A stretch of DNA of 59,811 bases from Candidatus Omnitrophota bacterium (GTDB lineage Bacteria > Omnitrophota > Gorgyraeia > Zapsychrales > Fredricksoniimonadaceae). Both the position numbers and the translations under genes were made by a program. The notes under the pieces are model-generated. The model made no database searches. It had not been told where the DNA came from and saw only the letters and a program-made list of their open reading frames with translations. The DNA lies in assembly GCA_013287965.1 (NCBI GenBank), contig JABDCU010000009.1, forward strand, positions 1 to 59,811. The letters run 5' to 3'. Below, piece after piece: positions 2,643 through 18,752 of this stretch; position 1 is the first letter of the stretch, and each line of letters opens with the position of its first letter.

Positions 2643-2686
2643 TTATACCTTGGTACAATTGATTCTTTTTTGACCATCCCTAGGAT
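2643..2686 (+). promoter_or_regulatory. Conserved operator + sigma70-type promoter, copy 1
   Basis: TTATACCTTGGTACAA, then TTGATT(2659)-N16-TAGGAT(2681). Confidence 0.8.
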
Positions 2687-2738
2687 AACAACAAGGAAGA
2701 TGTCCGTATAAACCAATAACGAGAAAAGAAGGTGTGCT

Positions 2739-3404
2739 ATGAAAGTAAATTACTTAAAGTTGTTTTTCGTCATGACAGCAGGGATCTTACTTGCTGGTAT
2801 CTCTGCGTTTGCGTCTGTTCCAGTACCAACGGTAAGCCAGGTGCCGGGAAGAGTGATGTGGGTGGATGTTAAGCTCGGGACAATGCAGATCAAGCTTGAT
2901 CAATCCTCCGGTTCAGGAGAAAAAAGAGAATACAGGATCACCCGCTATGAAACCCGCGTCAAAGATCCTTCGGATAAAAAGTTCCTCACCATTGATGATC
3001 TGCGGCCCGGTGAATATGTCACCCTTGACGTGATCGATGGCCAGGCAGATAAGATCATTGCCAAGATCGTTGCTGAATCATTGCAGGCGGCTGATTTTCA
3101 GGTGGCTTCCGGCCAGATCCAAACCATTGACGGGCAGGCAGGAACGCTCACCTTGCAAGAGAAGATGCGCAATGGTGTCCAAGAAGAGAGTAATCTATCG
3201 AGTTTTATCTTTGATCCCAATAATATCGTTGTTCTGCAAAGCCCCAGCATTCAGCCGGTGGCATTAGTACTGAAGCCTGGTGATTCAGTGCAGGTCCAAT
3301 TTGTGCTAAAAGATGAAAAGCAACAAGTATATTCCATTACGTTGTATGCACCACAGCATACAACGACAACCACGGTCACAACAACAACCAGCAGCACACC
3401 ATAG
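2739..3404 (+). CDS. Secreted hypothetical protein with two beta-rich repeats and a Thr-rich tail
   Basis: Signal peptide; two similar units (LRPGEYVTL / LKPGDSVQV); C-terminal TTTTTVTTTTSSTP; SD-like GAAGG upstream. Confidence 0.7.
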   Translation: MKVNYLKLFFVMTAGILLAGISAFASVPVPTVSQVPGRVMWVDVKLGTMQIKLDQSSGSGEKREYRITRYETRVKDPSDKKFLTIDDLRPGEYVTLDVIDGQADKIIAKIVAESLQAADFQVASGQIQTIDGQAGTLTLQEKMRNGVQEESNLSSFIFDPNNIVVLQSPSIQPVALVLKPGDSVQVQFVLKDEKQQVYSITLYAPQHTTTTTVTTTTSSTP

Positions 3405-3504
3405 AGGTCAAGATGATGGACCAAGATTCAGATTGCTGGAGCCATTTGTGGCAGCTTATCAAGGCCAATGTCTTACGATTATTGGGTGACGCCAGGAGAG
3501 ACCT

Positions 3505-4443
3505 ATGAAGAAAATCTTTATAGTGGCGGGTCTGATCGTTATTGGCTTAGTGGGCATCGCCTTTGTTAAAGACCAGGTCATTAAGTCCGTGGTAACAGCC
3601 ATCGCTTCTAATGTCACAGGAGCACCGGTACATATGGATGGTTTTTCAATGGATATTTTCAGCTCAACCATCCATATTACCGGATTTAAAATGGGTAACC
3701 CCAGCGGCTTCCCGGAAGGGGTTCTGGTATCCTGCCCTAAAATAAACGTCATCTATGACAGTGCTTCCCTATTAAAGCAGGACCCTCATTTTTTACTGGT
3801 GGAGGTTGAGCTCAAAGAAATGGTGCTTACCAAGAACAAAGCAGGCAAGCTTAACGTTGATTCGTTAAAAATAGTGCATCCGTCTAAGTCTGCTTCATCT
3901 ACCCCCATGCGGATAGATCTTCTTAATTTAAGCATCGGCAAGATCGTGTACAAGGATTATACGAATGGCCCGGAACCCAGCGTTAAGGTTTTTGATATTA
4001 ATGGGCACAAAAGTTATAAACGGGTTCCCACGGCCCAGCAATTAGCCTTACTGGTGCTTGCAGAGCCCATGAAGGCTGCCGCGATCAAGAATGCTGAAAT
4101 CTATGGGGTTGCCATGTTCACCGGTGTGGCCATGCTGCCTATTGCTGTAGTGGCAACCTTTACAAGCAAAGACAGCGTGGAGCAGGTTGTTGATGCCGGT
4201 TTTGAACACACGTATGAGATCAGTCTTGAGGTAGTAAAGCGCATGGGAACAGTGACTGAACAGGATGAGTCAGGTGGGGCGATCAAAGCCAAGATCAACG
4301 GGTCCACGGTTGCTCTTATACTTAGGAAGGCTGAAGGCAATAAAACCGAAATAACCATTTCCGCACGAAAATACATGCTTCCCCAGCCGGATATCGCTGG
4401 AGGGGTTTTGTATCAGGTCCTTGATAAACTGCAATCCTCTTGA
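3505..4443 (+). CDS. AsmA-like N-terminal domain protein with a C-terminal DUF3568-like domain
   Basis: SD AGGAG; N-terminal TM; AsmA-type GFKMGNPSGFP beta segment; domain calls by eye. Confidence 0.6.
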   Translation: MKKIFIVAGLIVIGLVGIAFVKDQVIKSVVTAIASNVTGAPVHMDGFSMDIFSSTIHITGFKMGNPSGFPEGVLVSCPKINVIYDSASLLKQDPHFLLVEVELKEMVLTKNKAGKLNVDSLKIVHPSKSASSTPMRIDLLNLSIGKIVYKDYTNGPEPSVKVFDINGHKSYKRVPTAQQLALLVLAEPMKAAAIKNAEIYGVAMFTGVAMLPIAVVATFTSKDSVEQVVDAGFEHTYEISLEVVKRMGTVTEQDESGGAIKAKINGSTVALILRKAEGNKTEITISARKYMLPQPDIAGGVLYQVLDKLQSS

Positions 4444-4491
4444 TTATTTTAAAGACCGCAATTTTATCCGTCGATAAATTCAAATCCGGCA

Positions 4492-4535
4492 TTATACCTT
4501 GGTACAATTGATATTATTTCGCCGCTGCCTAGAAT
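4492..4535 (+). promoter_or_regulatory. Conserved operator + promoter, copy 2
   Basis: TTATACCTTGGTACAA, then TTGATA(4508)-N16-TAGAAT(4530). Confidence 0.8.
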
Positions 4536-4593
4536 AAGACCATTGAATCAACAATTTTAGTGATCAAGTACAACCTAAATGGAGGTAGTTCAA

Positions 4594-6744
4594 ATGAAGC
4601 GAATACTTTTTTCCACGTTTTTTGTTGCTGCTGTTGTGGCGGCTTGGTGCACATCAGCCTTTGCTGCGGCGGAGACCATTACCCGTACCGGAGGCGGAGG
4701 TAACCCCTATTCCTCTGAAGCAACCGGTCAGGCTGCGGGTTACTTTATGGCGGATGTAGGTGCTTCATATACCTTGAAGCTCACCAACGGTTTTCCTAAT
4801 ATTTTTACCAACAACTCAGCCGGCCCTTACATCAGTGCCGCTGTTGACACCGACACGGCTAGTTTTGCCAACCTCCTATTTGATACTGGCGACAACGCGA
4901 ACGTGTATGGGACCATTGGTGCTTCAAATCAGTTTTTAGACATCACCCTTACCGGTAGCGCCTCAGTTAATTTTGATGGGACGGTTAATACCACCACGAT
5001 GCATGTCGGAACCGGTACAGCGGACTTCTCAAGCGGGACCACGAACGTCGTATCCGGAGGCTCAACTTTTACTGGTGCTGCTGGTACCGGCACGATTGAT
5101 CTTGAAGCGAATACGGCATTCACAGGCGCTATTACGACCACGACGTCCGGTGCGGGCACGTTGGTGCTCAATAATAATACTACAGTGACTGGCGCAGTCG
5201 GCGGAACTGAGATTGGGGCGATCACCCTTCCCGGGACACTTGTTGACACAACAAGTCCAACCATCATTGGCGCGGTGAACGCCTTTACCTATAATCTGGG
5301 GGTAAACAGGTTGAATGTCCACGGTGCCCTAACGACCGGAGCAGGTGGGAATATCAATACGAGCCTGGCCAGCACGGCGATCTACGGCAACATCGCAGCA
5401 ACGGGAGCCTCAACTTTGGGAACAGCTTTCGTAGTCAATGTGACTCCTTTACAGTTGGTTGACATCCCGGCCGGGACCACGTTTTCTCTCGTCACAGCTC
5501 CGTCCGGCAATGCCCCTGCTGGGACAGTCACATCTTCCGGTGGTTTTACGTTCACCGTTGCGACCCTCGCCGGTCAGTTAACAATAACATCAACAGCCGA
5601 CATACCGGCAGTAATACCACCGGTAGCTGCTGCGGTGGCACCAGCAGTACTAACCATTACTAATCCGTCTCCTGGTTTCGCAACGGTCCAGAATTCAATC
5701 CTTGCTCTCAGCACCCAGGCGGCCGCCTCAGCGCTTGAACAGCTTAGCCCTTTGACTCCGGCTTTGGTAGCGCCTAAGGTGACATTCGAAGGGGCCAGGG
5801 AGTCTCAAAATCTTTGGTTGTCCCGCTTAGACATGTGTGATCAGTTCAGCAGTTTTTATAAAGATGATCCAAGCTGTCAGGAAAACAACCCGCAAAGCGG
5901 TTGGTGGACGAAAGGTTTCGGATATTTTGGTCACCGGAATGACAGGGGAGCCTTCCCAGGCTATGACTCCGTTATTGCCGGTGGCATGATCGCTTACGAT
6001 GTGCCCCTTAATGCTGACACGCGCGCGGGCTTAGGTCTTGGGTATACACGAAGCATCATCAATGGCAAAGAGTTCCGGGATCAGACTACTTTTGACAGCT
6101 ATCGGCCGACGGTCTATATCGGCCATGAGCAGGGGCCATGGTACGTTGATGGCAGTGCGTCATTTGGCTGGAACCAGTATGTAGGCACGCGGGACATTTC
6201 GTTTCCGGGTGTAGCTCGTAGGGCAAACGCCAAGTATGCCGGACAAGATTATACAGCTTATATTAACACAGGGTATCATATTGCCGCTCCCGCGAAATTC
6301 ATCGTGACACCGCTGGTATCGCTTCAATACAGCCGTGTGAACATGAATGGCTACACGGAAACAGGTGCCGGTGATATTGATCTGCATGTGAAGCCCCAGG
6401 GTTATCATTTTCTCGAGTCAGGCTTGGGAGCGAAGGTGGAGCGCCCCTTTAGCTTTCATAAGTGGACAATTATTCCTGATCTGCATGTCAAGTGGTTCCA
6501 TGATTTCATCAACCCGACGATGAAGCAGACGGCGGTGTTCACCACCCAAGGCGCGTCAGCGTTTACAACGCCGGGGTTAAGGACGTCCCGTGAGACCTAT
6601 GATGTCGGTACCGGCCTCACGCTCCTTTCGTGCAAATGCACCAAGAAGTACGATTGGTCGATCGCGGCTGATTACGATTATTTCTGGCGGAGTGACGGTT
6701 ATTCCGCCAATCAGGCGACACTGAGGTTTACACTTAATTTCTAA
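4594..6744 (+). CDS. Autotransporter (type Va) with Gly/Thr-rich beta-helical passenger
   Basis: SD GGAGG before ATG 4594; signal peptide; G/T/N-rich passenger; Pro/Ala linker; barrel (WTKGFG..., ends LRFTLNF). Confidence 0.88.
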   Translation: MKRILFSTFFVAAVVAAWCTSAFAAAETITRTGGGGNPYSSEATGQAAGYFMADVGASYTLKLTNGFPNIFTNNSAGPYISAAVDTDTASFANLLFDTGDNANVYGTIGASNQFLDITLTGSASVNFDGTVNTTTMHVGTGTADFSSGTTNVVSGGSTFTGAAGTGTIDLEANTAFTGAITTTTSGAGTLVLNNNTTVTGAVGGTEIGAITLPGTLVDTTSPTIIGAVNAFTYNLGVNRLNVHGALTTGAGGNINTSLASTAIYGNIAATGASTLGTAFVVNVTPLQLVDIPAGTTFSLVTAPSGNAPAGTVTSSGGFTFTVATLAGQLTITSTADIPAVIPPVAAAVAPAVLTITNPSPGFATVQNSILALSTQAAASALEQLSPLTPALVAPKVTFEGARESQNLWLSRLDMCDQFSSFYKDDPSCQENNPQSGWWTKGFGYFGHRNDRGAFPGYDSVIAGGMIAYDVPLNADTRAGLGLGYTRSIINGKEFRDQTTFDSYRPTVYIGHEQGPWYVDGSASFGWNQYVGTRDISFPGVARRANAKYAGQDYTAYINTGYHIAAPAKFIVTPLVSLQYSRVNMNGYTETGAGDIDLHVKPQGYHFLESGLGAKVERPFSFHKWTIIPDLHVKWFHDFINPTMKQTAVFTTQGASAFTTPGLRTSRETYDVGTGLTLLSCKCTKKYDWSIAADYDYFWRSDGYSANQATLRFTLNF

Positions 6745-6805
6745 ATGATTTTTTCTCCCGGGAGTCGGTGACTACGGCCTAGGAAGCAGTTAGTTGCCTC
6801 TTCTT

Positions 6806-6843
6806 TCTACCCGTCTTGTGTTTCTTAACACAAGGCGGGTAGA
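6806..6843. terminator. Strong hairpin after the autotransporter, possible terminator
   Basis: TCTACCCGTCTTGTGTT-tctt-AACACAAGGCGGGTAGA, 17 bp stem with one G:T pair; no clear plus-strand U tract. Confidence 0.55.
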
Positions 6844-6963
6844 GACATTATCCTTGTATGGTAGGAGCTAAAAGCCTATCATGATGATGTAAAGTCCTTC
6901 TTCATAATACCCTGACTGCTGACAGTAGGGAAAGCAATGTATTTTACAAAAGGTGGGAGTTAA

Positions 6964-7326
6964 ATGTCAGCAAATATCTATATTGTGGATGACGACGAGT
7001 CAGTGTGCCGCGCGCTCAAGACCCTCTTAATGACGTATGATTTTGAAGTAAAAACATTTAATTCGGCCCAAGGTTTTTTTGATAACGTGGCCCATGATGC
7101 TCCCGGCTGTCTGCTTCTTGACATCCATATGCCGGGGACAGACGGGTGGGAAGTCCAGCGCAAGATCCTTGCCTCCGGGTCGACCCGTCCGGTCATTTTT
7201 ATTTCCGCCGAGAAAAAAGACAATGCTTCTGTCCGCGCGCTACAGGTAGGGGCGGTGGGTTTCTTGCAAAAACCCGTTAACGGCCAGACCTTGGTGGACA
7301 TGATCAATGGCGCGTCAAAAAATTGA
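6964..7326 (+). CDS. Single-domain response regulator (FixJ-like receiver)
   Basis: IVDDD, LLDIHMPG, FLQKP. Confidence 0.9.
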   Translation: MSANIYIVDDDESVCRALKTLLMTYDFEVKTFNSAQGFFDNVAHDAPGCLLLDIHMPGTDGWEVQRKILASGSTRPVIFISAEKKDNASVRALQVGAVGFLQKPVNGQTLVDMINGASKN

Positions 7327-7339
7327 CAAAGGGCTATCA

Positions 7340-8848
7340 ATGAAAAAGAAAATAATTGCCGTCACACCAAAGAAGATGAAAAAGCCGTTATTGAAAAAAA
7401 TATCCCGCATCAATCTGGAAGGACAGATCCGTCTGCTGACACGTGATTTGAACGTCATAAAAAGGCAATTAAAGCGAGGGGTCAGCAGGGAGAAGCTCTC
7501 CAAAGAGAAGTTCCGCGGGGAAGTGACCCAGGGCGTAAACAGGGAGAAATTAGGGGCAGATAGAGAAAAGCAGGGAGCAGATAGAGAGAGGCTGGGGGCG
7601 GACAGGGAGAAGCAGGGGGCTAACAGGGAAAAATTAGGGGCAGGCAGGGAAAGGCTTGCGGAAGAGCAATTTCGTTTGCAAACAGATGAAATAGAATTAA
7701 AAGACGGGCAATTAAGGGAAGGGGCAGACAGGGAAAAGCTTGCGGAAGAGCAAATACATATCCGTACTAAAGCGATGGAAGCTACATTCGACGGCATTTT
7801 TATTATCGATGCCCTGAAGCCGGATTTCCCTATTATCTATGCCAATCCGTCTTTTTACCATCTTACCGGTTTTACAAAAAATGAGGTCATTGGAAAGAAT
7901 TATTTCCTGCTTTATGGGGTTGTTGATAATTTGCACGCCCTGGAAGAAATAAAACAAGCCCTGCTTCAAGGAAGGTCTTTTCAGGGGGAGCTGCTCAATT
8001 CCAAGAAAAACGGCGAAAAGTTCTGGAGTTTACTGCGGATAACCCTGGTGCGTGATAAGAATGGGACCGTCACTCATTATGTGGGTAATAAAACAGATAC
8101 CACATTGATGAAACAAAGGAATTTAGAGATCGAAGAACAGCGTGAGGAGCTTTTGCATGTGACACGGGTCGGGAAACTCGCGGAATTTGTCTCGTCTTTG
8201 GCCCATGAGATCAGCCAACCCTTGACCGCCATCCTTTCTTATGCTCAAGCGGCCCAGCGTATGTTAAAGGACAGGGAGCCACAACTGCAGGAGGTCTTGC
8301 AGTATATTATCAATGATGACCAGCGGGCAGCTGAAGTTATCCGCCGCTTAAGGTATTTGTTAAAAAAGAGCAAGCCCACCTTTGAGCTTCTTGATATCAA
8401 TACATTGATCAAAGACACCATTACGCTGATGATGCCCCATATCACGGCAAAGAATAAAGTGATCAAATTCGAATCAGGCAGTAACCTTCCATCTATCCAG
8501 GGGGACCGGATACAATTGCAGCAAGTGCTCCTGAACCTTATCAGTAACAGTTTGGAAGCAATGGAGTCGAGCAATGATTCTCGTGAATTGGTGATCAGTA
8601 CATGCCTCAAGGATGCCGGGACGATCATGGTGAAGGTTAAGGATTCAGGATGCGGCATTCCGGAGGAAAATAAACTTAAGCTCTTCGGTCATTTTTTTAC
8701 GAGCAAGCCGGATGGTTTAGGCATGGGATTGTCTATCAGCCGTTCCATTGTGGAGGCGCATGGCGGCCGCCTGGAGGCAGAGAATAACCCGGATCGCGGG
8801 GCCACTTTTTATTTCACCGTTCCGGTTTATATGAAGAAAGGCCAATGA
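7340..8848 (+). CDS. Cytoplasmic PAS sensor histidine kinase (FixL-like) with heptad-repeat N-terminus
   Basis: PAS IIYANPSF..LTGF; H-box LAHEISQPL; N-box QVLLNLISNS; G-boxes DSGCGI and GLGMGL; no TM; start could be 7307. Confidence 0.9.
   Translation: MKKKIIAVTPKKMKKPLLKKISRINLEGQIRLLTRDLNVIKRQLKRGVSREKLSKEKFRGEVTQGVNREKLGADREKQGADRERLGADREKQGANREKLGAGRERLAEEQFRLQTDEIELKDGQLREGADREKLAEEQIHIRTKAMEATFDGIFIIDALKPDFPIIYANPSFYHLTGFTKNEVIGKNYFLLYGVVDNLHALEEIKQALLQGRSFQGELLNSKKNGEKFWSLLRITLVRDKNGTVTHYVGNKTDTTLMKQRNLEIEEQREELLHVTRVGKLAEFVSSLAHEISQPLTAILSYAQAAQRMLKDREPQLQEVLQYIINDDQRAAEVIRRLRYLLKKSKPTFELLDINTLIKDTITLMMPHITAKNKVIKFESGSNLPSIQGDRIQLQQVLLNLISNSLEAMESSNDSRELVISTCLKDAGTIMVKVKDSGCGIPEENKLKLFGHFFTSKPDGLGMGLSISRSIVEAHGGRLEAENNPDRGATFYFTVPVYMKKGQ
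7538..7663 (+). repeat. Six imperfect 21 bp tandem repeats encoding (N/D/G)RE(K/R)(L/Q)(G/A)(A/E)
   Basis: e.g. aacagggagaaattaggggca / gatagagaaaagcagggagca / gacagggagaagcagggggct. Confidence 0.85.
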
Positions 8849-9465
8849 ATACTTCCATCATCTATATTGTTGATGACGACGCCTCGATATGCAAGGCCAC
8901 GTCCTTATTGTTAAGGTCGAACGGCTTTATCGTTGAGCCCTTTGTCCAGGCATCTGATTTCTTGGCTTTCAAGCATCTTAAGATGCCCGCATGCCTGCTT
9001 TTGGATATCCGCCTTCCTAATATCAACGGGTTTGCCCTTCAGGACATCATGGCCCAACAGGGGATCATTATTCCTATTATTTTTATGACCGGATATGGGG
9101 ACATTCCCATGAGCGTCAAAGCGATGAAGGCGGGGGCGGTCGATTTTCTGCCTAAGCCTTTTACTGAAAAGAAATTAATTGATGCCATCACACTTGCCCT
9201 TTCAAAAAGCAAGGTCCAGAATAAAAAACAAGCCGAGGTAGCAAAAATAAAGCAACGCGTTGACACCCTGTCACCGCGGGAATTGGAAGTTTTTCATTTT
9301 GTGGCCCAGGGAATGATGAATAAGAACATCGCTTCAAAGCGGGGGACTTCCCTGCAAACCATCAAGGTCCACCGCGGCAGGGTCATGCAGAAAATGCAGG
9401 CTAAAACCGTGACCGAACTCATCCACCTTGCCCAAAAAGCAGGCATCACTTCCGCTACAGTCTAA
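8845..9465 (+). CDS. FixJ/StyR-family response regulator (REC + LuxR HTH)
   Basis: IVDDD, TGYGDIPMSVKAMKAGAVDFLPKP, LSPRELEV...TIKVHRGRVMQKM; ATGA overlap with the kinase. Confidence 0.92.
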   Translation: MNTSIIYIVDDDASICKATSLLLRSNGFIVEPFVQASDFLAFKHLKMPACLLLDIRLPNINGFALQDIMAQQGIIIPIIFMTGYGDIPMSVKAMKAGAVDFLPKPFTEKKLIDAITLALSKSKVQNKKQAEVAKIKQRVDTLSPRELEVFHFVAQGMMNKNIASKRGTSLQTIKVHRGRVMQKMQAKTVTELIHLAQKAGITSATV

Positions 9466-9483
9466 TATCTCAAGCAAAGATAA

Positions 9484-9714
9484 TTACGGCACGACAATGG
9501 ACGTCAGGCTGATGTTCTTATTATTCCTGACCACGGTCGCTGTTTGGACCATCTGATAAGCATTTTTTGAAGAAGGAGCCATGTTCGGGCCATTCAAGAT
9601 CACATGTGCCGGTATGGTGACAGAAAGATGGAATGTTGTAGTCGCGCAATAGGCAGGTATGCTTTGCAGGAAGATAACGGTTGTAAGTGCCAACAGGATG
9701 AAAAGTCTTTGCAT
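9484..9714 (-). CDS. Small secreted hypothetical protein
   Basis: SD GGAGG before MQRLF; signal peptide ending PAYC-A; beta-rich mature part. Confidence 0.55.
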   Translation of the reverse strand: MQRLFILLALTTVIFLQSIPAYCATTTFHLSVTIPAHVILNGPNMAPSSKNAYQMVQTATVVRNNKNISLTSIVVP

Positions 9715-9775
9715 TTCGTCCTCCAACTTAAATATAACATATATTCCTTTTCTTTGCCATCCACGTGGGTATTTA

Positions 9776-9819
9776 TTATACCTCGGTACAATTGATTCGT
9801 TTGGACGTGTCCCTAAAAT
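9776..9819 (+). promoter_or_regulatory. Conserved operator + promoter, copy 3
   Basis: TTATACCTCGGTACAA, then TTGATT(9792)-N16-TAAAAT(9814). Confidence 0.8.
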
Positions 9820-9865
9820 ATGAATATGCAGGTAAAAAATTTACTGACTTAAGGAGCGTGACCAG

Positions 9866-10231
9866 ATGTTATTAGCAAAGAAACAGATCTTTATTGTCGA
9901 CGATGATGAGTCCGTGTGCCGTGCCCTTAAATTACTGATGATGACCTACGGGTTTGTGGTGGAGACATTTTCTTCCGCGGAGAAATTCCTGAGCGTGGTC
10001 TCCAACAGCACTCCGGGATGCCTGATCCTGGACATCCATTTGCCGGGGATGAATGGCTGGGACACGAAGAAAAAGCTCATGGAATCAGGCTCCAATCGTC
10101 CGGTCATTATGATCACCGCGGACAAAGAAGAAGGCCTCAAAGAGCGGGCTTTTAAAGCAGGGGCCTTGGGATCTTTGCAAAAACCATTTTATGACCAGCA
10201 GCTGGTTGATCTGATCAATTTGTCTTTTTAA
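9866..10231 (+). CDS. Single-domain response regulator (paralog of 6964..7326)
   Basis: IVDDDESVCRALK shared with the paralog; LDIHLPG; LQKP; SD AAGGAG. Confidence 0.9.
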   Translation: MLLAKKQIFIVDDDESVCRALKLLMMTYGFVVETFSSAEKFLSVVSNSTPGCLILDIHLPGMNGWDTKKKLMESGSNRPVIMITADKEEGLKERAFKAGALGSLQKPFYDQQLVDLINLSF

Positions 10232-10243
10232 GGAAAAGTATTC

Positions 10244-10675
10244 ATGGTAAAAGAAATGATCCGGTTTACGATCGCGGGGACCATTGTCACCGTGGTGGAT
10301 TTCAGTATTTACTATGTCCTGTTCCATTTTTTTCCATATAATGTGTCTAAAGGGGCTTCTTTTGTCTGCGCGGGCATTGTTGGGTACTTGCTTTACAAGT
10401 ACTGGACCTTTAAGAACATCCACCCGTCGCATACCGAAGTGCTTCGTTATGTGTTCATTAATTCTTTAGCTTTGGGGATCAATGTTTTCATCAATCATCG
10501 TGTCCTGAGCCATTGGCCTGGGGCTGTTCTCATGGCCTTGATCACAGCTACGTCATTAACGTGTTTATTTACCTTTATTTTCTTTAAATGTTGGGTTTTT
10601 AAGGTTTCTTTGATAGCAGAGAAGAGAGGTATTAAAAGTGGAGAAAACGATAAAAGCCCTTACCCTGCGACCTGA
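10244..10675 (+). CDS. GtrA-family membrane protein
   Basis: RFTIAG..TVVDF, KYWTF, KCWVF; four TM helices. Confidence 0.8.
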   Translation: MVKEMIRFTIAGTIVTVVDFSIYYVLFHFFPYNVSKGASFVCAGIVGYLLYKYWTFKNIHPSHTEVLRYVFINSLALGINVFINHRVLSHWPGAVLMALITATSLTCLFTFIFFKCWVFKVSLIAEKRGIKSGENDKSPYPAT

Positions 10676-12110
10676 TGATCTTGTTATATTGAATTCAGGA
10701 GAAAAGATAGATCCGCAGGAGTTGGAGAAGTTCTACGCCAAGGTGGCTCCTGTCAAAGAGATCTGTGTTCTCACTGTCTCAGGAATGCATGGTGTCAGGA
10801 AATCAAGGGTCCTATGGGCCATCATTCAGCCGGACCTGGATAGTTTCAGGAAATTTGGCGAAGTGAATTTACGCGCCGTCATTAAGGAAAGATTTGATAA
10901 TGCCTCGCAATCGGTCCCTTTTAATAAAAGGCTTAAAGGTTTTACCATTACCCTTGAGGACCTGCCGCATACCACAGCTGATGAATTAGATAGGCCCGCG
11001 GTCAAGAAAATATATGAAACCAGGGTCATAGCAGGCAAAGAAGGGGCGCTTCCTGTATCAGGAGAGCTTCCAGCAGAGGACCTTTTGTTGACAAAGTCCG
11101 TGGTCGGCATAAGGATCCTGAAATGCCTGAAGCAACAAAGCGGTATTAGAAGACCGATCACGCCGTCGGATTCTTTAGAGCTGGACCTTGGCATAGATTC
11201 ATTAGGCAGGATAGAACTTGCTTCTTGCCTTGAGTCATCTTTTAGCGCTGATTTAAAAGTAGAAACGATCGCGCAGGCCTTTAGTGTCAAAGACCTTATC
11301 CTGGGAATAACAGATGCGTTAAGAGGCGCCAAAGAGATCCCTCCGGAGGACGAAGGGGTGGTTACAGGAGAAGATTATTGGAAAGAACGTTTACAAATAC
11401 TGCCAAAGAAAGAAACCTTGGATATGCTGGAATTGGGAGCTGGTTACTTCGCGTGGCTCTTTCGATTTACTTTAACAGCCGTAGATTTTTTGATCTTCAA
11501 GGTATTTTTTAGGGTCAAGGCAGAAGGTCCTGATAATGTGCCCAAAGAAGGGGCCTATATTTTATACGGCAATCATACGAGTTTTCTTGATGGGCCGGCC
11601 ATCGGTGCCAGTCTGCCGCGTAGACCGGGGTTTCAGATCTTTTATTTTGTTTTCGGTCCGTATTTCTTCAGGCCCTTCGTCAAGAATCGTGTCTTAAGGA
11701 ACCTGGTCAAGATGGGAAGGTTCATTCCTTTTGATTTTTCAACGCATTTTTTGGATGCCCTGCGCAGCTGTTATTTTGTGCTAAAACACGGCAAAGGTTT
11801 GTGTTTCTTTCCGGAAGGGTTACGCAGTGTTACCGGTGAAGTGGGGGAATTTAAAAAAGGCTTTGGCATTTTGGCTAAGGAGACAGGGGCAAAACTGGTA
11901 CCTGTGGCTATAGAAGGGGCCCATGAAGCCTGGCCGAGTACGTCAAAGTATCCCCGATGTCATCCGATCCGGGTGAGATTCGGCAAACCTCTTCTTCCGG
12001 AAGATCTGCAAAAGGAAGGCTTGAGCATGGGCACAAAAGATCCCTACGAAGCCATTTGCCTGGCCGCAAGAAAAGCGCTTATAGAGCTAAAAGAGAAAGG
12101 CACGCCATGA
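10638..12110 (+). CDS. Fusion of an acyl-CoA synthetase C-terminal remnant, ACP and PlsC-type acyltransferase
   Basis: SGEKIDPQELE (AMP-binding C-terminal-like); ACP DLGIDSLG; acyltransferase NHTSFLD and FFPEG; GTG start after GAGG. Confidence 0.8.
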   Translation: MEKTIKALTLRPDDLVILNSGEKIDPQELEKFYAKVAPVKEICVLTVSGMHGVRKSRVLWAIIQPDLDSFRKFGEVNLRAVIKERFDNASQSVPFNKRLKGFTITLEDLPHTTADELDRPAVKKIYETRVIAGKEGALPVSGELPAEDLLLTKSVVGIRILKCLKQQSGIRRPITPSDSLELDLGIDSLGRIELASCLESSFSADLKVETIAQAFSVKDLILGITDALRGAKEIPPEDEGVVTGEDYWKERLQILPKKETLDMLELGAGYFAWLFRFTLTAVDFLIFKVFFRVKAEGPDNVPKEGAYILYGNHTSFLDGPAIGASLPRRPGFQIFYFVFGPYFFRPFVKNRVLRNLVKMGRFIPFDFSTHFLDALRSCYFVLKHGKGLCFFPEGLRSVTGEVGEFKKGFGILAKETGAKLVPVAIEGAHEAWPSTSKYPRCHPIRVRFGKPLLPEDLQKEGLSMGTKDPYEAICLAARKALIELKEKGTP

Positions 12111-13396
12111 ATATTTTATTAATGACCAACACCTATAAGCCATTGGTAGGCGGATTGGAAAAATCCGTGAGCAGTTTTACTAAAGAATATAGAGAAGCAG
12201 GTCATAGGGTCATTATCATAGCCCCTGAATTCCCTGATATGCAGCCTGAAGAGGATGTGATCCGTATCCCGGCGTTCAAGCATTATAACGGGTCAAATTT
12301 CTCTGTGCAGCTGCCTATTCAGGGGACCCTGACAAAGGCTTTGGGGGATTTTCGTCCTCATATCGTCCATTCCCAGCATCCCTTCCTTATTGGGGACACG
12401 GCCTTGCGCATAGCGGCTAAGTATAATGTGCCCTTAGTTTTTACCCATCACAGCTTGTACGAAGAAAATGTCCATTATATGCCGGGTAATATCGAGGCCC
12501 TTAAACGTTTTATGATCGAATTATCAACGGGCTATGCGAATCTGGCTGACCATGTTTTTGCTCCCAGTGAAAGTGTGATGCAGATGTTGAAAGAAAGAGG
12601 GGTGATGACCGCCATTGACGTGGTCCCCACCGGTATTTACACAGAGCAGTTTTCCCGGGGAGCTGGAAAGGCTTTTCGTAAAAGATTTAATATCCCTGCG
12701 GATGCTTTTGTGGTGGGCCATGTGGGCAGGCTCGCCCCTGAAAAGAACCTGGAATTTGTCACGCGCGCTGCTGCCCAATTTCTTAAGAAGGAACCCAGGG
12801 CCCATTTTTTAATAGGGGGTACGGGTCCCTCTGAAGGTTCTATCAAGGAGATCATGGCCCAGGAAGGGCTCACCGACCGTTTACATTTGGCAGGTATGCT
12901 TAAGGGAAAAGACCTGGTGGATGCCTATCATGCCATGGATGTGTTTGTATTCGCGTCACAAAGCGAGACACAAGGCTTGGTCATTACTGAGGCCATGGCC
13001 GCCGGCATCCCTGTGGTGGCTGTTGACGCTCCTGGTGTCCGGGAAGTCGTGAAAGACGGCGTGAATGGCCGTTTACTTGCCCATGAATCAATGGAAGATT
13101 TTGTTGAGGGCCTAGTGTGGTTAAATAAATTATCTGCTCCTCAAGTCAAAAAGATCAAACACGCGTGCAAAGAAACAGCCCAACATTTCTTAATGAAGGA
13201 TTGCGCTCAGAAAGCCTTGAAGATCTATGTTTCACTTGCCACTAATAATGGCTTTTGCCGTCGCCATAAAGAAGAAGGCTTTTGGTCAAAAGCTGTACAT
13301 TCTATCCAGGCCCAATGGGGTACAGCTAAAAATCTGACCCATGCGACAGAAGCCTACATATCTCCAGCCCTTGTTCCGGAGCAAGCCGCTGCATGA
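12107..13396 (+). CDS. Glycosyltransferase family 4 (diacylglycerol glucosyltransferase-like)
   Basis: MNILLMTNTYKPLVGG; HSQHPF; ETQGLVITEAMAAG (EX7E); ATGA overlap. Confidence 0.88.
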   Translation: MNILLMTNTYKPLVGGLEKSVSSFTKEYREAGHRVIIIAPEFPDMQPEEDVIRIPAFKHYNGSNFSVQLPIQGTLTKALGDFRPHIVHSQHPFLIGDTALRIAAKYNVPLVFTHHSLYEENVHYMPGNIEALKRFMIELSTGYANLADHVFAPSESVMQMLKERGVMTAIDVVPTGIYTEQFSRGAGKAFRKRFNIPADAFVVGHVGRLAPEKNLEFVTRAAAQFLKKEPRAHFLIGGTGPSEGSIKEIMAQEGLTDRLHLAGMLKGKDLVDAYHAMDVFVFASQSETQGLVITEAMAAGIPVVAVDAPGVREVVKDGVNGRLLAHESMEDFVEGLVWLNKLSAPQVKKIKHACKETAQHFLMKDCAQKALKIYVSLATNNGFCRRHKEEGFWSKAVHSIQAQWGTAKNLTHATEAYISPALVPEQAAA

Positions 13397-14127
13397 AACA
13401 ATCGGGATATTTAACGACTTCAGACCATCATCGGATCCATTATGACCAATTTAAGGCTGGTCATAAGAGGGTCATCATTATTGCTCATGGTTTTTTCAAC
13501 AGTAAACAGGCCGTTGTTCTCAAGCGGTTGGCAGGATCGTTAAACAATGAATATGATGTTATTTTGTTTGATTTTAGGGGCCATGGCCAAAGCAAAGGAC
13601 TGTTTTATTGGACAGCAAAGGAATATTTAGACCTGGTGAGTGTTGTCGAGTTTGCCGGCAGGAGTTATGAGCGGATCGGGTTGATCGGCCTTTCTTTAGG
13701 GGCAGCCACAAGCATTATTGCTGCCTCCAAGACGTCCTTGATCAACAGTATTATTTCTATCAGCGCTCCGGTGGAATTTACAAAGATTGATTATCGTTTT
13801 TGGGAGCTTAATGTCAAAAATGACCTATTTTATAATTTGTTCGGTGAGGGCAGGCAAGGTAAGGGAGTCAGGCCGGGGCCTTTCTGGTTTAAGAAAGAAA
13901 AACCCCTCGCGGTAGTTAAGAAAACAAAAACCCCCATTTTTTATATTCATGGCGATTCTGATTGGGTCATCCGGTATTGGCATTCGGAGGAGCTTTATAA
14001 AAATACGACGGCTTTTAAACGGTTAAGCATTATTAAAAATGGACCGCATGCTGAGCATCTTTTTCTTGAGCACAAAGATGAGATGCTGCGTTTAATTCGG
14101 GAATGGTTCCGTGAAACTTTGAAGTAA
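13393..14127 (+). CDS. Alpha/beta hydrolase
   Basis: HGF, DFRGHG, nucleophile GLSLG, HGDSD, GPH. Confidence 0.88.
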   Translation: MKQSGYLTTSDHHRIHYDQFKAGHKRVIIIAHGFFNSKQAVVLKRLAGSLNNEYDVILFDFRGHGQSKGLFYWTAKEYLDLVSVVEFAGRSYERIGLIGLSLGAATSIIAASKTSLINSIISISAPVEFTKIDYRFWELNVKNDLFYNLFGEGRQGKGVRPGPFWFKKEKPLAVVKKTKTPIFYIHGDSDWVIRYWHSEELYKNTTAFKRLSIIKNGPHAEHLFLEHKDEMLRLIREWFRETLK

Positions 14128-14134
14128 GGCCGCG

Positions 14135-14178
14135 TTATACCCCAGTACAATTGTTTTTCTTTGTCCCCTCCCTAAAAT
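14135..14178 (+). promoter_or_regulatory. Conserved operator + promoter, copy 4
   Basis: TTATACCCCAGTACAA, then TTGTTT(14151)-N16-TAAAAT(14173). Confidence 0.75.
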
Positions 14179-14231
14179 AAGATCATAAACAATTCACATC
14201 CTTAACAGTAATGCTCAATGGGGGAAAAGCT

Positions 14232-14432
14232 ATGATTACACAAATTGGAGTTGCTTCAGGAGAGATTTTAAATCTGATCGATGAGAAAAAAAGACCGGTC
14301 AGCCTCAGTGAGATTGAATCCCATTTAGAAAATGAAAAGGAATTGACGTATATGAGCATTGGTTGGCTGGTGCGGGAAGGGCATGTGCATTTAGTTAATA
14401 AAGGAAGAGAAAAATATTTATGTAGTTGTTAG
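14232..14432 (+). CDS. Small winged-helix protein (DUF2582-like)
   Basis: IGVASGEILNL...MSIGWLVREG resembles the IG.AAG...AIGWLARE pattern. Confidence 0.75.
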   Translation: MITQIGVASGEILNLIDEKKRPVSLSEIESHLENEKELTYMSIGWLVREGHVHLVNKGREKYLCSC

Positions 14433-14456
14433 AAGGCACATAACAAGGAGGGTTCT

Positions 14457-14615
14457 ATGACAAATCAAAAAGACCGAAAGTTTTGTAAATTTAGCGACAA
14501 GGAGAAAGAATTTTCTAAGTCTATCCATGGTTGGTTAGCTCAATATGACGAAGAGGATGATTTTTTATGTGGGAAGGTTTCGCATTCTTTGCCGGAGTTT
14601 ACGGAAGAAGAATAA
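14457..14615 (+). CDS. Small hypothetical protein, 52 aa (not in ORF track)
   Basis: Strong SD AAGGAGG; MTNQKDRKFCKFSDKEKEFSKSIHGWLAQYDEEDDFLCGKVSHSLPEFTEEE; fills the gap up to the next promoter. Confidence 0.55.
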   Translation: MTNQKDRKFCKFSDKEKEFSKSIHGWLAQYDEEDDFLCGKVSHSLPEFTEEE

Positions 14616-14623
14616 TTCTATCG

Positions 14624-14667
14624 TTATACCCCGGTACAATTGATATTATTTTGCCTTTCCTTAGAAT
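14624..14667 (+). promoter_or_regulatory. Conserved operator + promoter, copy 5
   Basis: TTATACCCCGGTACAA, then TTGATA(14640)-N16-TAGAAT(14662). Confidence 0.8.
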
Positions 14668-14692: not shown

Positions 14693-15565
14693 ATGGGGGT
14701 AAATATGAAAATATTAGGTATTGTTTTAAGTTGTTTGTTGGTAGCTGGTTTTGTCCCTGCTTTTGGGGCAACAGCCCGCAGTTTCGATTTCACTGATGAG
14801 ACTTCCAATGTGCTGGTGCAAAAAGCTTGGGGTGGCTTGACTGCCAAGGATTTAGAGGCAGTAGAAGCCTATGTTAACAAAGTTGACCAGATTTACGCCA
14901 GTAAAGCTGCAACCATGCAGGCGAGCCTTCAAGATTATGCCTCTGGCAGCAATGAGCAGATCTTTAAGTACTGGGCGCTGAACGATGTCAGCACCGCGTG
15001 GTTTATTTTGGGCAAGGCTTATCGTAATGCCGGTAAGAAAGATGAAGCTATCAAGGCCTACACTAAAGTCATCAATGATTTTTCTTATGGCCAGTGCTGG
15101 GATGTCAAAGGTTGGTTCTGGAAACCTGCCCAAGCTGCCAAAGAAGAAATAGCCATGATCCAGTCCGGTTCTAACGTGGATTTCGGTGATTATTCTTCCA
15201 GCACCCTGGTCCAAAAAGCTTGGGGCTCTTTAGCTGCCAAGGATTTAAGTTCAGTAGAGGCGTATGTTAACAAGACGGATGAATTTTATTCCAATAAGGC
15301 CAAAGACATGCAGGCAAGTCTTCAAACTTTTGCCTCCGGCAGCAATGACCAGATCTTTAAATATTGGGCGCTTAATGATCTCGGCACCGCATGGTTTATT
15401 TTAGGTGAAGCCTATCAAAATGCCGGCAAAAATGAACAGGCCACCCAGGCTTACAAAAAAGTCATCAATGAATATTCTTTTGCGCAATGCTGGGACCCTC
15501 AAGGTTTCTTTTGGAACCCCACTGAAGCCGCCCAACAGAAATTAGTGGAATTAGACATTAAGTAG
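14693..15565 (+). CDS. Secreted TPR-like protein made of two tandem ~125 aa repeats
   Basis: Signal peptide; duplicated LVQKAW...QIFKYWALND...AWFILG.AY...QCWD..G.FW.P..AA; start may be 14705. Confidence 0.8.
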   Translation: MGVNMKILGIVLSCLLVAGFVPAFGATARSFDFTDETSNVLVQKAWGGLTAKDLEAVEAYVNKVDQIYASKAATMQASLQDYASGSNEQIFKYWALNDVSTAWFILGKAYRNAGKKDEAIKAYTKVINDFSYGQCWDVKGWFWKPAQAAKEEIAMIQSGSNVDFGDYSSSTLVQKAWGSLAAKDLSSVEAYVNKTDEFYSNKAKDMQASLQTFASGSNDQIFKYWALNDLGTAWFILGEAYQNAGKNEQATQAYKKVINEYSFAQCWDPQGFFWNPTEAAQQKLVELDIK

Positions 15566-15649: not shown

Positions 15650-15678
15650 TTGACAAATAATCAATATTATGTTATGAT
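15650..15678 (+). promoter_or_regulatory. sigma70 promoter of the trb operon
   Basis: TTGACA-N17-TATGAT with extended TG; SD AAGGAG before trbC. Confidence 0.7.
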
Positions 15679-15718: not shown

Positions 15719-16033
15719 ATGAAAAAGTTAAAAGTTTTTTTAGTTCTATCCGTGTTGATGATCTTGTTTGTTGGCAATGCATCCGCAACGACAAGCTCGC
15801 AAATTTTAGTGATGTCCAATCAACTGTATCAAATCGCTAAAGATTTAACAACGGGGATGTTCCCGACAGCCATTCTCCTCATCGCGATTGGTTTTTGGGG
15901 CATCGTTAATGCATTCGGAAAAGGCATCGGAGACGGTCTGCACCAGTTAACGAACATAATAGCCGTTGGGGGCATTGTATTCTTTGCCTCTTCCCTATTA
16001 GTCAACGCGGCCATGTTTTCAGCACAAGTGTAA
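15719..16033 (+). CDS. trbC: TrbC/VirB2-like pilin
   Basis: Signal peptide plus two hydrophobic helices; first gene of the trb operon. Confidence 0.7.
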   Translation: MKKLKVFLVLSVLMILFVGNASATTSSQILVMSNQLYQIAKDLTTGMFPTAILLIAIGFWGIVNAFGKGIGDGLHQLTNIIAVGGIVFFASSLLVNAAMFSAQV

Positions 16034-16039
16034 AAAAAT

Positions 16040-16357
16040 ATGATCGATCAAAAAACAAGCACACCGGTATTCCAGAGTTTGACCAGGCCGATCTTATTAT
16101 TAGGAGGGGAGCGGGAGAACATTATTCTTTTGGCTTGTCTCTCACTAAGCTTATGCACTGTCGGCCGGGATTTCATATCGCTTATTTTGGCCGTATTAAT
16201 ATGGACTATCGGGATCATCGCCAGCAAATGGATGGCTAAAACCGACCCCTGGGCCACCAAGGTATTTCTAAGGTCACTTTTATACCGGGATTTTTACGGC
16301 GCGCGGGAGAGGATAAATACGCCCGCGTGTATTTTAAAACGTAGCAGGAAGATCTAA
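16040..16357 (+). CDS. trbD: TrbD/VirB3
   Basis: SLTRPILLLGGERE and MAKTDP motifs. Confidence 0.85.
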   Translation: MIDQKTSTPVFQSLTRPILLLGGERENIILLACLSLSLCTVGRDFISLILAVLIWTIGIIASKWMAKTDPWATKVFLRSLLYRDFYGARERINTPACILKRSRKI

Positions 16358-16358
16358 T

Positions 16359-18752
16359 ATGCTGCCGGTCAAAGAATTCACAGAGGGCCCTGCGGGATTT
16401 CCTTCGCTCATCAATTACTTTGAATTTGTGGATGAGGGCGTTTTGTTCAATCGTGACGGGAGTCTTTTGGGTTGCTTTTACTATTGCGGCCCGGACATGG
16501 ATTCATCCTTAGGTCTGGAAGAAGACCAACTATCTTCCCAGGTCCAGTCGATCTTCCAGAATTTCGGCAATGGCTGGTCCGTGCATGTGGATTTGCTCAG
16601 GGTGCCTGCGATCGAGTATCCTCAAACCCATCATTTTAATAACCCGACTTCCCTATTAATTGAAAAGCAGCGGCGAAAGCAGTATGAGAAGGAAGGCGAT
16701 CATTTTGAAAATATCTATGCCATTAGTTTTTGTTATTTGCCTTCAGTGGTTGAAAAATCCACCCCAAGCCTTGAATTCATTATTGAAGTTTTTAACCAGA
16801 AATTAGGGGAATTCCAGGGAAATATTGCCAATAAAATACATATCAAACGCATGAGCTCCGCAGAGATGATGACCTTTCTTGATCGCTGCATCTGCGGCGG
16901 CAGATCAGAAATACCGGTCCCTCAGCCGCCTTGTTACCTTAATCATTACCTGGGCGCGCATGAGTTCGTAGGCGGCCATGAACCCATGATCGATGATAAT
17001 CATATCGGGGTCATCACACTGACCCAATTTCCTCACGAGAGTTTTGCCGGGATTTTGAATATCCTCTCAACCCTGCCGTTTGAATACAGGTTTTCTTCAC
17101 GGTTCCTTTTTTATGACCCCATTGATGCTTTAGGCATCGTCGAGGAATACCAGGGCAAATACTTGGGGATGAAATATTCTATCGGACAGATGATCATGGG
17201 TGCTTTTGGTAAAGATCCGCGTTTAAACCCTGATGCCGCCAACCGTTCTGTGTTGACGAAAATAGAGGAAACCAGGCAAGCCCAGGAAGCTATCGAAATG
17301 GGCCAAGTCAATTACGGCTATGCCACTTTTGTGGTGGTGATCTTAGACAGCAATAAAGCTGAGTGCAAAAGGAAGATGGAATACATCAGGGATTTGCTCA
17401 ACAACAATTGGTTTCCCTGCATGATCGAAAAAATGAATGCCATAGAAAGCTATCTTGGCAGTTTGCCGGGGGAAACCCTCAAAAATATCCGTAAACCATT
17501 TATCAATACCCGCAATCTGGCGAATATGCTGCCCCTGACCGATGTTTGGACAGGGGCCTTGTATAATCCTTGTCCCTATTATCCTAAAAATTCACCGCCG
17601 CTTTTTTATGCGGCCACCAACGGAACAACTCCTTTCAGGTTCAATGTGCATGTGGGCGATGTCGGGCATACCTTGATACTTGGGCCCACCGGAGCGGGTA
17701 AATCAGTTTTATTGTCCCATATTGCCAATTCAGCGTTGCGCTATGAAGGCGCCCAAGTCTACATTTTCGATAAGGGCCACAGCCAGTTTGTCCTGACCCA
17801 TGCCGTGGGAGGGGAGTTTTACGATATTTTGGGTGATGATGACGATCTATCGTTTTGTCCTTTAAGTAATTTAGAAGATTTGAGTGAGCAGAAATGGGCT
17901 TGCAGCTGGATTGAGCGGATCGTTGCCCTACAGGGGGTTGTCATGGGCCCGGCCATTCGCGCGGCCATTGAAGCAGCCATCCGCGATACCGGCAGATCTT
18001 CTTCCAAGACGCTGTCGGATTTTTATTTAAACCTTCAAAATGACCAGATCAAAGAAGCCCTGAAACCGTTTGTGCAGATCAAAGAGGGCTATATGTCTTC
18101 TCTATTAGATGCCAAGGAAGACGGATTTAAAAAGGGTAAATTCCAGACTTTTGAAATTTCAAACCTGATGGGATTGGATAACAGGCTAAGCACCCCTGTT
18201 TTGCTTTATTTATTTCATAAGATCCAATGTTCCCTTGACGGACGTCCGACCTTTATCATTATTGATGAAGGCTGGCTGATCATGCTACATGAAACGTTCA
18301 TGACCTACTGGATAGAATTTTTAAGGACCATCAGGAAAAATAATGCCTGTGTGCTTTTAGCCACTCAGAGCCTTTCAGATATTGTCAATTCACCCTATGT
18401 CAGTTTTATTAATGAAAGCTGTTTTACAAAGGTCTTTTTGCCTAATCCGGCAGCACGGGAAGCGGACAATAAAAAATTTTATCAGGCCTTTGGCTTAAAT
18501 GAGCGGCAAATTGAGATCATTAGTGAAGCTGTCCGTAAAAAACACTATTACGTGACTAGCCGTGATGTGGGGCATCGCTTGATTGACCTGGGGTTAAAAA
18601 ATTTAGAGCTGGCTTTTTATGGGGCAGGGACATCGCCGCAGGAAAGGCAAAAGGTCAAGGAACTAAGGAAGAATTTCGGGGACAAATGGGTCGCTGAGTG
18701 GCTTAAGGGTAAGGGATTGATTTCAGAAGCCCAAGAATGGTTAAAACTATGA
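16359..18752 (+). CDS. trbE: TrbE/VirB4 ATPase
   Basis: GPDMDS, YLGSLPG, DVGHTLILGPTGAGKS (Walker A), IIIDEGW (Walker B), ATQSLSD, FLPNP. Confidence 0.93.
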   Translation: MLPVKEFTEGPAGFPSLINYFEFVDEGVLFNRDGSLLGCFYYCGPDMDSSLGLEEDQLSSQVQSIFQNFGNGWSVHVDLLRVPAIEYPQTHHFNNPTSLLIEKQRRKQYEKEGDHFENIYAISFCYLPSVVEKSTPSLEFIIEVFNQKLGEFQGNIANKIHIKRMSSAEMMTFLDRCICGGRSEIPVPQPPCYLNHYLGAHEFVGGHEPMIDDNHIGVITLTQFPHESFAGILNILSTLPFEYRFSSRFLFYDPIDALGIVEEYQGKYLGMKYSIGQMIMGAFGKDPRLNPDAANRSVLTKIEETRQAQEAIEMGQVNYGYATFVVVILDSNKAECKRKMEYIRDLLNNNWFPCMIEKMNAIESYLGSLPGETLKNIRKPFINTRNLANMLPLTDVWTGALYNPCPYYPKNSPPLFYAATNGTTPFRFNVHVGDVGHTLILGPTGAGKSVLLSHIANSALRYEGAQVYIFDKGHSQFVLTHAVGGEFYDILGDDDDLSFCPLSNLEDLSEQKWACSWIERIVALQGVVMGPAIRAAIEAAIRDTGRSSSKTLSDFYLNLQNDQIKEALKPFVQIKEGYMSSLLDAKEDGFKKGKFQTFEISNLMGLDNRLSTPVLLYLFHKIQCSLDGRPTFIIIDEGWLIMLHETFMTYWIEFLRTIRKNNACVLLATQSLSDIVNSPYVSFINESCFTKVFLPNPAAREADNKKFYQAFGLNERQIEIISEAVRKKHYYVTSRDVGHRLIDLGLKNLELAFYGAGTSPQERQKVKELRKNFGDKWVAEWLKGKGLISEAQEWLKL

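Follow-up and report, generated by a model that had tools for sequence, protein, structure and literature searches.

A repeated operator-promoter element in an Omnitrophota genome and the response regulator that probably acts on it

The 59,811-base stretch of DNA analysed here (the window) is a contig, C9, of a draft assembly from a Candidatus Omnitrophota bacterium (1.52 Mb in 50 contigs, 46.7% G+C, 69.5% complete). It carries five exact copies of a palindromic motif, each followed at a fixed distance by promoter-like −35 and −10 boxes. The repeats are genuine and represent one kind of promoter, into which a palindromic site is built. We consider it probable that the element is a composite operator-promoter, its dyad being bound by a phosphorylated dimer of the response regulator encoded at 8845..9465, a protein with a receiver (REC) and a GerE domain, and that this binding activates transcription.

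In the proposed mechanism, a soluble PAS histidine kinase (7307..8848) would phosphorylate the regulator on receipt of a signal, and a dimer of the phosphorylated regulator would bind the 18-bp dyad A-TTATACC-NN-GGTAcAA-T. The dyad abuts, with a 1-base overlap, a sigma-70-type −35 box (TTGATT), and a spacer of 16 or 17 bp separates this from a −10 box (TAnAAT). The bound dimer, centred near −42.5, would touch RNA polymerase and activate it. The single-domain receivers (genes at 6964 and 9866) would drain off phosphate or inhibit the kinase, and the receiver at 9866 would itself be switched on by the regulator, giving negative feedback. Binding, activation rather than repression, the transcription start site and the roles of the receivers are all points that we infer from the sequences.

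Copies and anatomy of the operator-promoter

The motif pattern TTATACCNNRGTACAA was searched for on both strands of the window, allowing up to two mismatches, and the matches were compared with those in 100 shuffles. It occurs with 0 mismatches on the + strand at 2643, 4492, 9776, 14135 and 14624; elsewhere on the + strand of the window there was no match at ≤2 mismatches. The nine matches in total comprise these five sites and four reverse readings of the same palindromes. The chance expectation was 0.36 (standard deviation 0.63), and none of the 100 shuffles gave nine matches. Each of the five dyads is continued on its 3' side by TTGATT, TTGATA or TTGTTT; a spacer of exactly 16 bases leads from there to TAGGAT, TAGAAT or TAAAAT, and a start codon is found 50 to 110 bases beyond each copy. 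Three of the five were also found independently by a generic scan for sigma-70 promoters, at 4508-4535, 9792-9819 and 14640-14667. The original prediction, made from the window alone, had described a five-copy motif with promoter architecture and no other copy in the window. The exact matches, the fixed flanks and the low expectation bear this out, and the genes that it had named downstream were confirmed by Pfam for all five copies:

2643..2686, + strand: copy 1; dyad TTATACCTTGGTACAA, TTGATT, 16-bp spacer, TAGGAT; 5' of the secreted-protein gene at 2739
4492..4535, + strand: copy 2; 5' of the autotransporter gene; also in the promoter scan
9776..9819, + strand: copy 3; directly 3' of the regulator gene and 5' of the REC-GtrA-acyltransferase-GT4-hydrolase row; also in the promoter scan
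14135..14178, + strand: copy 4; A at dyad position 10; 5' of the DUF2582 winged-helix gene
14624..14667, + strand: copy 5; 5' of the TPR gene; also in the promoter scan

The anatomy of the element was derived from 127 unique sites, taken from the genome of the window and from loci fetched from its relatives. Positions 0 to 17 form the 18-bp dyad, A-TTATACC-yn-RGTAcAA-T, and the dyad and TTGATT are nearly invariant across these sites, which come from many genomes. TTGATT occupies positions 17-22, the last base of the dyad being the first base of the −35 box. Within the spacer, a T-tract at positions 26-28 is moderately conserved, as is a C just 5' of the −10 box. In 72 sites the −10-like TAnAAT begins at position 39, and in 39 sites it begins one base later, at position 40. 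Since the −10 box floats by one base, it fits a separately read sigma element and not a part of a single long and inflexible recognition site. The −35 and −10 boxes match consensus at 4/6 and 5/6 positions, respectively.

If transcription starts ∼7 nt past the −10 box, the centre of the dyad would lie near −42.5. Class II activators have their sites centred near −41.5 or −42.5, and the class-II-type geometry that had been predicted would follow from the position of the −10 box, given this assumed start.

The sole constant asymmetry of the dyad is at position 14 (in the window, for example, 2656, 4505 and 9789), where symmetry predicts T; the base is C in 104 sites and T in 23. A T at this position would make a perfect TATAAT within the operator. 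The T form is commoner 5' of the regulator operon (five of eight relatives) and sometimes yields TGnTATAAT, possibly a basal promoter.

The candidate regulator and its link to the motif

The signalling genes lie between copies 2 and 3 and directly behind copy 3, and the first of them is preceded by a degenerate version of the element:

6877..6908, + strand: degenerate remnant of an autoregulatory operator-promoter; left half-site lost, CATAAT −10-like box kept
6964..7326, + strand: single-domain receiver, first gene of the signalling operon (Pfam Response_reg, 8.6e-27; acceptor Asp kept)
7307..8848, + strand: sensor histidine kinase with a repeat-rich N-terminus, one LOV-like PAS, HisKA and HATPase_c
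8845..9465, + strand: response regulator of the FixJ/StyR subfamily, REC + GerE (LuxR-type helix-turn-helix), 206 amino acids; proposed dyad binder
9866..10231, + strand: second single-domain receiver, of the gene family most often motif-driven in relatives; probable feedback element

The regulator matches the Pfam families Response_reg (4.4e-24, residues 6-115) and GerE (1.5e-17, residues 140-196), both above cut-offs, and thus has the N-terminal receiver and C-terminal GerE helix-turn-helix that define the NarL/FixJ class. When the three receivers of the window (6964, 9866 and the REC domain of the regulator) were aligned, the DDD, LLLDI and KP columns were invariant; we take these to be the acidic pocket, the phospho-acceptor Asp and the conserved Lys of receivers. 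The best solved relative of the regulator is StyR (1yio, E 2.4e-46, residues 5-198) and the second is FixJ (5xso, E 1.6e-40). Its recognition helix, TIKVHRGRVMQKM as compared with TVKVHRHNIMQKL in StyR, hardly varies among 22 orthologues.

Among NCBIfam names, FixJ suits the regulator best and FixL the kinase. The regulator scores 199.1 bits, below the cut-off of 255 for FixJ (NF006900, an equivalog), and the kinase 200.5 bits, over residues 141-508 only, below the cut-off of 850 for FixL (NF041777, an equivalog). The earlier description of the pair as FixLJ-like thus holds only for the order of domains: both proteins lie under the FixJ and FixL cut-offs, and the PAS domain resembles a LOV domain rather than a haem PAS.

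By eye, no membrane segment was noticed in the kinase sequence, and the protein is apparently soluble. Its PAS domain best resembles LOV/PAS_9 types, not haem PAS, and the LOV-type NCBIfam matches are far below their cut-offs. The LOV photoreceptor motif GXNCRFLQ carries the adduct-forming Cys; at this place the kinase reads GKNYFLLYG and its orthologue in genome G259 reads GQNYFLFYG, so the photoactive Cys is missing. From its sequence, it is improbable that the kinase serves as a flavin photoreceptor or as a haem sensor. The first 77 residues gave no domain match, and the repeat run gave only a weak sub-cutoff match to FAZ1_C (residues 78-110). This run, at residues ∼70-118 (window 7514-7661), consists of near-identical charged decapeptides REKLGADREKQGAD.

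The original prediction had tied the motif to this regulator and its PAS kinase, and three lines of evidence support the link: co-location, the presence of the motif 5' of the cassette in relatives, and co-occurrence. The REC-kinase-regulator cassette was found in 12 of the 20 motif clusters fetched from relatives, with the regulator at 68-82% identity and the kinase always present. These 12 clusters come from ten genomes, two of them of other families (G031 and G035). All three copies found in G007 sit within ∼3.5 kb, around and just 5' of the cassette. Furthermore, the start of the cassette was examined in eight relatives, and in all eight (8/8) the dyad stands 5' of its first gene, spaced as usual from a −35/−10 pair.

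The distribution of the motif was determined at three scales. When named genomes were scanned with a version of the motif 21 bases long, 118 stretches matched; among the 80 matches listed were 57 labelled Candidatus Omnitrophota or Omnitrophica, 20 labelled 'uncultured Planctomycetales' and three single matches in other taxa, about the number that we estimate would be expected by chance in that collection. Related genomes hold up to 43 copies of the motif. A set of 41 close genomes (including G000, the genome of the window) was searched for the motif at ≤1 mismatch and for the regulator at E ≤ 7e-50, and a backward control pattern gave 4 matches in total. The motif is present in 23 of the 41 and the regulator in 19, each of which has the motif (19/19). 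All 18 motif-free genomes, among them three 94%-complete genomes of the same genus, are without the regulator.

The widest sample comprised 401 genomes of the phylum, for which the protein search scored seven candidates per genome. The exact motif occurs in 37 of these genomes, which belong to a single class; none of the 401 has the backward control pattern. The regulator at at least 61% identity occurs in 30, and the exact motif accompanies it in 29 of them; the exception, G357, carries a copy with one mismatch directly 3' of the regulator gene. Most of the remaining genomes have neither motif nor regulator. Four genomes with only 48-54%-identical homologues have no motif, and these homologues read TEKT instead of LQT just before the recognition helix. 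Near regulator homologues of 46-53% identity (loci L074-L079), four loose patterns detected no related dyad, the single match (in L078) being without promoter context. The expected co-occurrence is thus seen in the direction from regulator to motif, but a minority of genomes has the motif without the regulator, G350 being the one serious case.

Objections and rival explanations

These exceptions, together with some features of the site itself, weigh against the regulator as the activator that reads the dyad. Eight of the 37 motif-bearing genomes of the phylum sample have no regulator at E ≤ 1e-45, and four of the close genomes (72-90% complete) have one or two copies at ≤1 mismatch with no regulator found. 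The regulator gene of G379 is in two pieces (C32:493444-494044), beside the motif, and several intact copies are kept. G259 has eight exact copies, and its regulator is only a 63-amino acid helix-turn-helix remnant behind an intact kinase (L053 7700-7990); the receiver domain is lost and the N-terminal codons run into a stop. G350 (98% complete) has five exact copies plus variants, with the full promoter architecture; its 49 candidates were all scored, and no regulator orthologue was found among them at E ≤ 1e-25. Its five motif promoters are clustered (L055, C28:630000-649999) 5' of genes for small membrane, lipoprotein-like and DUF883-like proteins, and its two GerE proteins have other recognition helices, one of them having an orthologue in motif-free G010. 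Five more genomes (G253, G065, G338, G256 and G266) have one exact copy each and no regulator at E ≤ 1e-25. Since motif, regulator and targets are physically linked and the genomes are related, co-occurrence alone cannot separate the regulator from another linked factor. The fairly good −35 and −10 boxes are also compatible with repression. Finally, the regulator operon of the window genome is without the dyad, whereas all aligned relatives keep the palindrome there: the relatives read TATACCTAGGTATAAT 5' of the REC-kinase-regulator operon and the window reads CATGATGATGTAAAGT, with the flanking bases kept. Judged by this alignment, the regulator of the window may no longer control its own synthesis.

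It is unlikely, in our view, that the regulator binds the dyad as a repressor, or in a dual role, blocking RNA polymerase at −35 until the signal arrives. Many activator-dependent promoters have −35 and −10 boxes further from consensus than these, the dyad reaches one base into the −35 box, and the keeping of many intact copies without an intact regulator, as in G350 and G259, is easier to tolerate if loss merely derepresses. Phosphorylated StyR (StyR-P) is itself reported to repress, from other sites than its activating one (PMC2442086). Activation was nevertheless rated likelier, given where the site lies and how this closest characterised relative behaves: a position just 5' of −35 matches the activating STY2 site of StyR, described as lying at ∼−40. 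The spacer is 16 bp in 72 of the 127 sites, under the usual optimum of 17, and the dyad 5' of the regulator operon in all eight relatives fits positive feedback, though negative feedback is possible too. A further reading, to which we give somewhat less credence than to repression, is that another DNA-binding factor reads the dyad and that the REC-kinase-regulator cassette is only a conserved member of the regulon. The motif without the regulator in G350 and in the five single-copy genomes would be explained in this way, and physical linkage inflates the co-occurrence figures. However, no other DNA-binding gene is consistently linked to the motif, the cassette is the sole gene set common to clusters of different families, and the single-copy cases mostly lie near contig ends (∼4 kb) of draft assemblies.

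Two other readings dispense with the regulator altogether. The whole 45-bp block could be the promoter of a dedicated alternative sigma factor, the palindrome being incidental, and the moderate conservation of the C 5' of the −10 box and of the spacer T-tract would suit this. So would targets that include ymgE-type and DUF1328 proteins, families described as stress-sigma-dependent in Salmonella (PMC5437024). Against it, the strongest conservation is found 2 to 22 bp 5' of −35, is dyad-symmetric and is not sigma-read, and the −10 box floats by one base. Matches to Sigma70_r2 number 4, 3 and 3 in motif-bearing G008, G022 and G031, as compared with 4 and 4 in motif-free G006 and G010, and G022 has only a primary-size sigma (559-amino acid frame), a 301-amino acid sigma and one weak match in a giant frame. 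A dedicated sigma factor is not supported by these counts and we consider it very improbable. The DUF2582 winged-helix protein (14211..14432), encoded by the only other DNA-binding gene of the cluster, is a small protein with a motif copy 5' of its own gene, as might be expected of an autoregulator that binds the dyad. Its orthologues with >60% identity were found in only 6 of the 41 close genomes, including G000. None was detected in G007, G031 or G035, although all three carry the motif and the regulator. Of the 19 close genomes with both, 13 gave no match, and weak relatives occur in five motif-free genomes (G025, G026, G032, G034 and G040). This candidate was rejected on its distribution, and its being the binder is hardly credible.

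Targets of the element and comparison with known systems

With the phosphorylated regulator taken as the activator at the dyad, the copies of the element define a candidate regulon. The assembly holds 12 promoters with the full architecture, on 6 contigs, and the reversed-genome control gave 0. Seven of the 12 lie outside the window, on C3, C4, C15, C21 (two) and C31 (two), and the regulon is thus not confined to a local cluster as had been proposed. Behind these seven copies are genes for a small signal-peptide protein, an alpha/beta hydrolase, a Transgly_assoc (YeaQ/YmgE-type) membrane protein and several proteins of no family. The copy in locus L070 (C4, 6878-7326, − strand) drives the alpha/beta-hydrolase gene, and a transfer-messenger RNA gene (Rfam, 165 bits) ends 4 bases 5' of the motif; this gene was missed by ARAGORN and detected by Rfam.

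To survey the targets more widely, 111 sites were taken from the fetched loci and the first open reading frame (ORF) behind each one was scored with Pfam:

Response_reg (mostly single-domain receivers): 22 ORFs of 111 sites
Transgly_assoc: 4 ORFs
DUF3309, DUF1328, DUF6515 and TPR: 3 ORFs each
MlaE, VIT1, Autotransporter and BON: 2 ORFs each

Many other first ORFs belong to no Pfam family. The commonest targets in relatives are thus single-domain receivers and small stress-type membrane proteins, and 'envelope-remodelling', the label first given to the regulon, is too narrow. In Salmonella, ymgE (transglycosylase-associated motif) and ytjA (DUF1328) are listed among the RpoS-controlled small proteins (PMC5437024), and the ymgE-type and DUF1328 targets therefore lend the regulon a general-stress flavour. 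In the window genome it additionally holds surface genes and lipid- and glycan-modifying genes. The remaining genes of the region are:

2739..3404, + strand: signal-peptide protein, 221 amino acids, no family; target of copy 1
from 3505: DUF748/AsmA-like protein (Pfam)
4579..6744, + strand: autotransporter (beta-domain 5e-54, Pfam); target of copy 2
10244..14127, + strand: GtrA, PP-binding + acyltransferase, GT4 glycosyltransferase and alpha/beta hydrolase; same direction as the receiver at 9866
14211..14432, + strand: DUF2582 winged-helix protein, 73 amino acids (Pfam 2.8e-9); target of copy 4, not the binder
14693..15565, + strand: TPR protein with signal peptide; target of copy 5
15719-18752: VirB2, VirB3 and VirB4 of a type IV secretion system, 3' of the TPR gene

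The GtrA-acyltransferase-GT4-hydrolase row is also found 3' of the cassette in G002, G011 and G035. In the window, the acyltransferase ORF (10638-12110) and the GT4 ORF (11957-13396) overlap by 154 bases, and the true start of the GT4 gene is probably further downstream. The type IV secretion genes were considered as members of the regulon and rejected as unsupported: virB2 has a strong promoter-like site of its own at 15650-15678 (TTGACA, 17 bp, TG-n-TATGAT; 11/12 matches + TG), and no VirB2, VirB3 or VirB4 homologues were found in the 20 motif loci fetched from relatives. The window starts inside an MlaE operon (530-2627), and a further motif copy may sit just beyond the contig start; in L059 (G379) and L062 (G303), a copy stands directly 5' of the MlaE-ABC-MlaD-auxiliary lipoprotein operon.

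As a tentative proposal, which we put forward as possible but doubtful, the cassette and dyad may serve one class of Omnitrophota as a master switch that governs a general-stress or dormancy-like response, a job done elsewhere by RpoS, EcfG or SigB. If this is true, the switch would be comparable to DosR in mycobacteria, with feedback via the induced single-domain receivers, and in the window genome it would have been extended to surface proteins and to lipid- and glycan-modifying enzymes. Judging by its distribution, the putative switch is common to many uncultivated Omnitrophota. We found no literature on gene regulation in Omnitrophota, a single search for 'response regulator' or 'two-component' giving incidental mentions only among the papers listed. 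The regulon is predictable from sequence alone: the 18-bp operator comes with a candidate regulator and kinase, its targets can be listed for each genome of the class, and the physiology behind the signal thereby becomes testable in metatranscriptomes or with recombinant proteins.

FixL/FixJ, which supplied the best family names, is not the closest parallel in its DNA sites. The FixJ sites are given as TAAGTAATTTCCCTTA, and the motifs obtained by systematic evolution of ligands by exponential enrichment as GTAGTTTCCC and GTAMGTAG (PMC4999443); as described there, they are unlike the dyad. Unlike in the FixL/FixJ system, no fixK-type second-tier regulator was seen here. A likeness exists to FixT of Caulobacter, reported to be a single-domain receiver that feeds back on FixL (PMC7078487, bioRxiv 10.1101/2024.02.05.579008), in that single-domain receivers here are motif-driven and are predicted to be induced by their own system.

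The nearest parallel to the binding site, which had not been recognised as one already described, is the StyR/TodT box. It is stated that StyR-like regulators (TodT, TutB and TmoT) may recognise the site ATAAACN4GTTTAT (PMC5874301). Its layout equals that of the element here, a 16-bp inverted repeat with four bases between AC and GT: ATAAAC-N4-GTTTAT as compared with TTATAC-CNNG-GTAYAA. The sequence differs (TTATACCNNGGTAYAA here), TTATAC replacing ATAAAC, and 4/6 half-site bases agree. StyR, of the StyS/StyR system of Pseudomonas (with the sister systems TodS/TodT and TmoS/TmoT), is a REC + GerE protein like the regulator described here. In StyR, Lys175, Val176 and His179 are described as facing the DNA (PMC5874301), and the Lys and Val are kept in our regulator, His179 being replaced by Gly (2/3). 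Phosphorylation is reported to trigger dimerisation and binding of StyR, and StyR-P to activate from the high-affinity STY2 site of the styA promoter, ∼−40 from the start (PMC2442086), a position like that of the dyad just 5' of −35. StyR targets an aromatic-catabolism operon, whereas the element here stands before genes for stress, surface and signalling functions. Kinases of the StyS/TodS type are large and double, whereas the kinase here is simple, with one PAS.

In their promoter geometry and reach, the LuxR-type regulators offer further comparisons. LuxR and TraR, on the lux and tra boxes, and DosR (DevR) are GerE-type helix-turn-helix dimers that sit on a palindrome adjoining or overlapping −35, and the DosR palindrome switches on scattered stress and dormancy genes in mycobacteria. 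LuxR and TraR are ligand-gated, not phosphorylated; DosR has a box of 20 bp with another sequence, and its kinases sense via GAF-haem domains. The mechanism proposed here, in which a response-regulator dimer sits on a palindrome adjoining −35, is conventional and makes the element a familiar type of switch, not a new mechanism.

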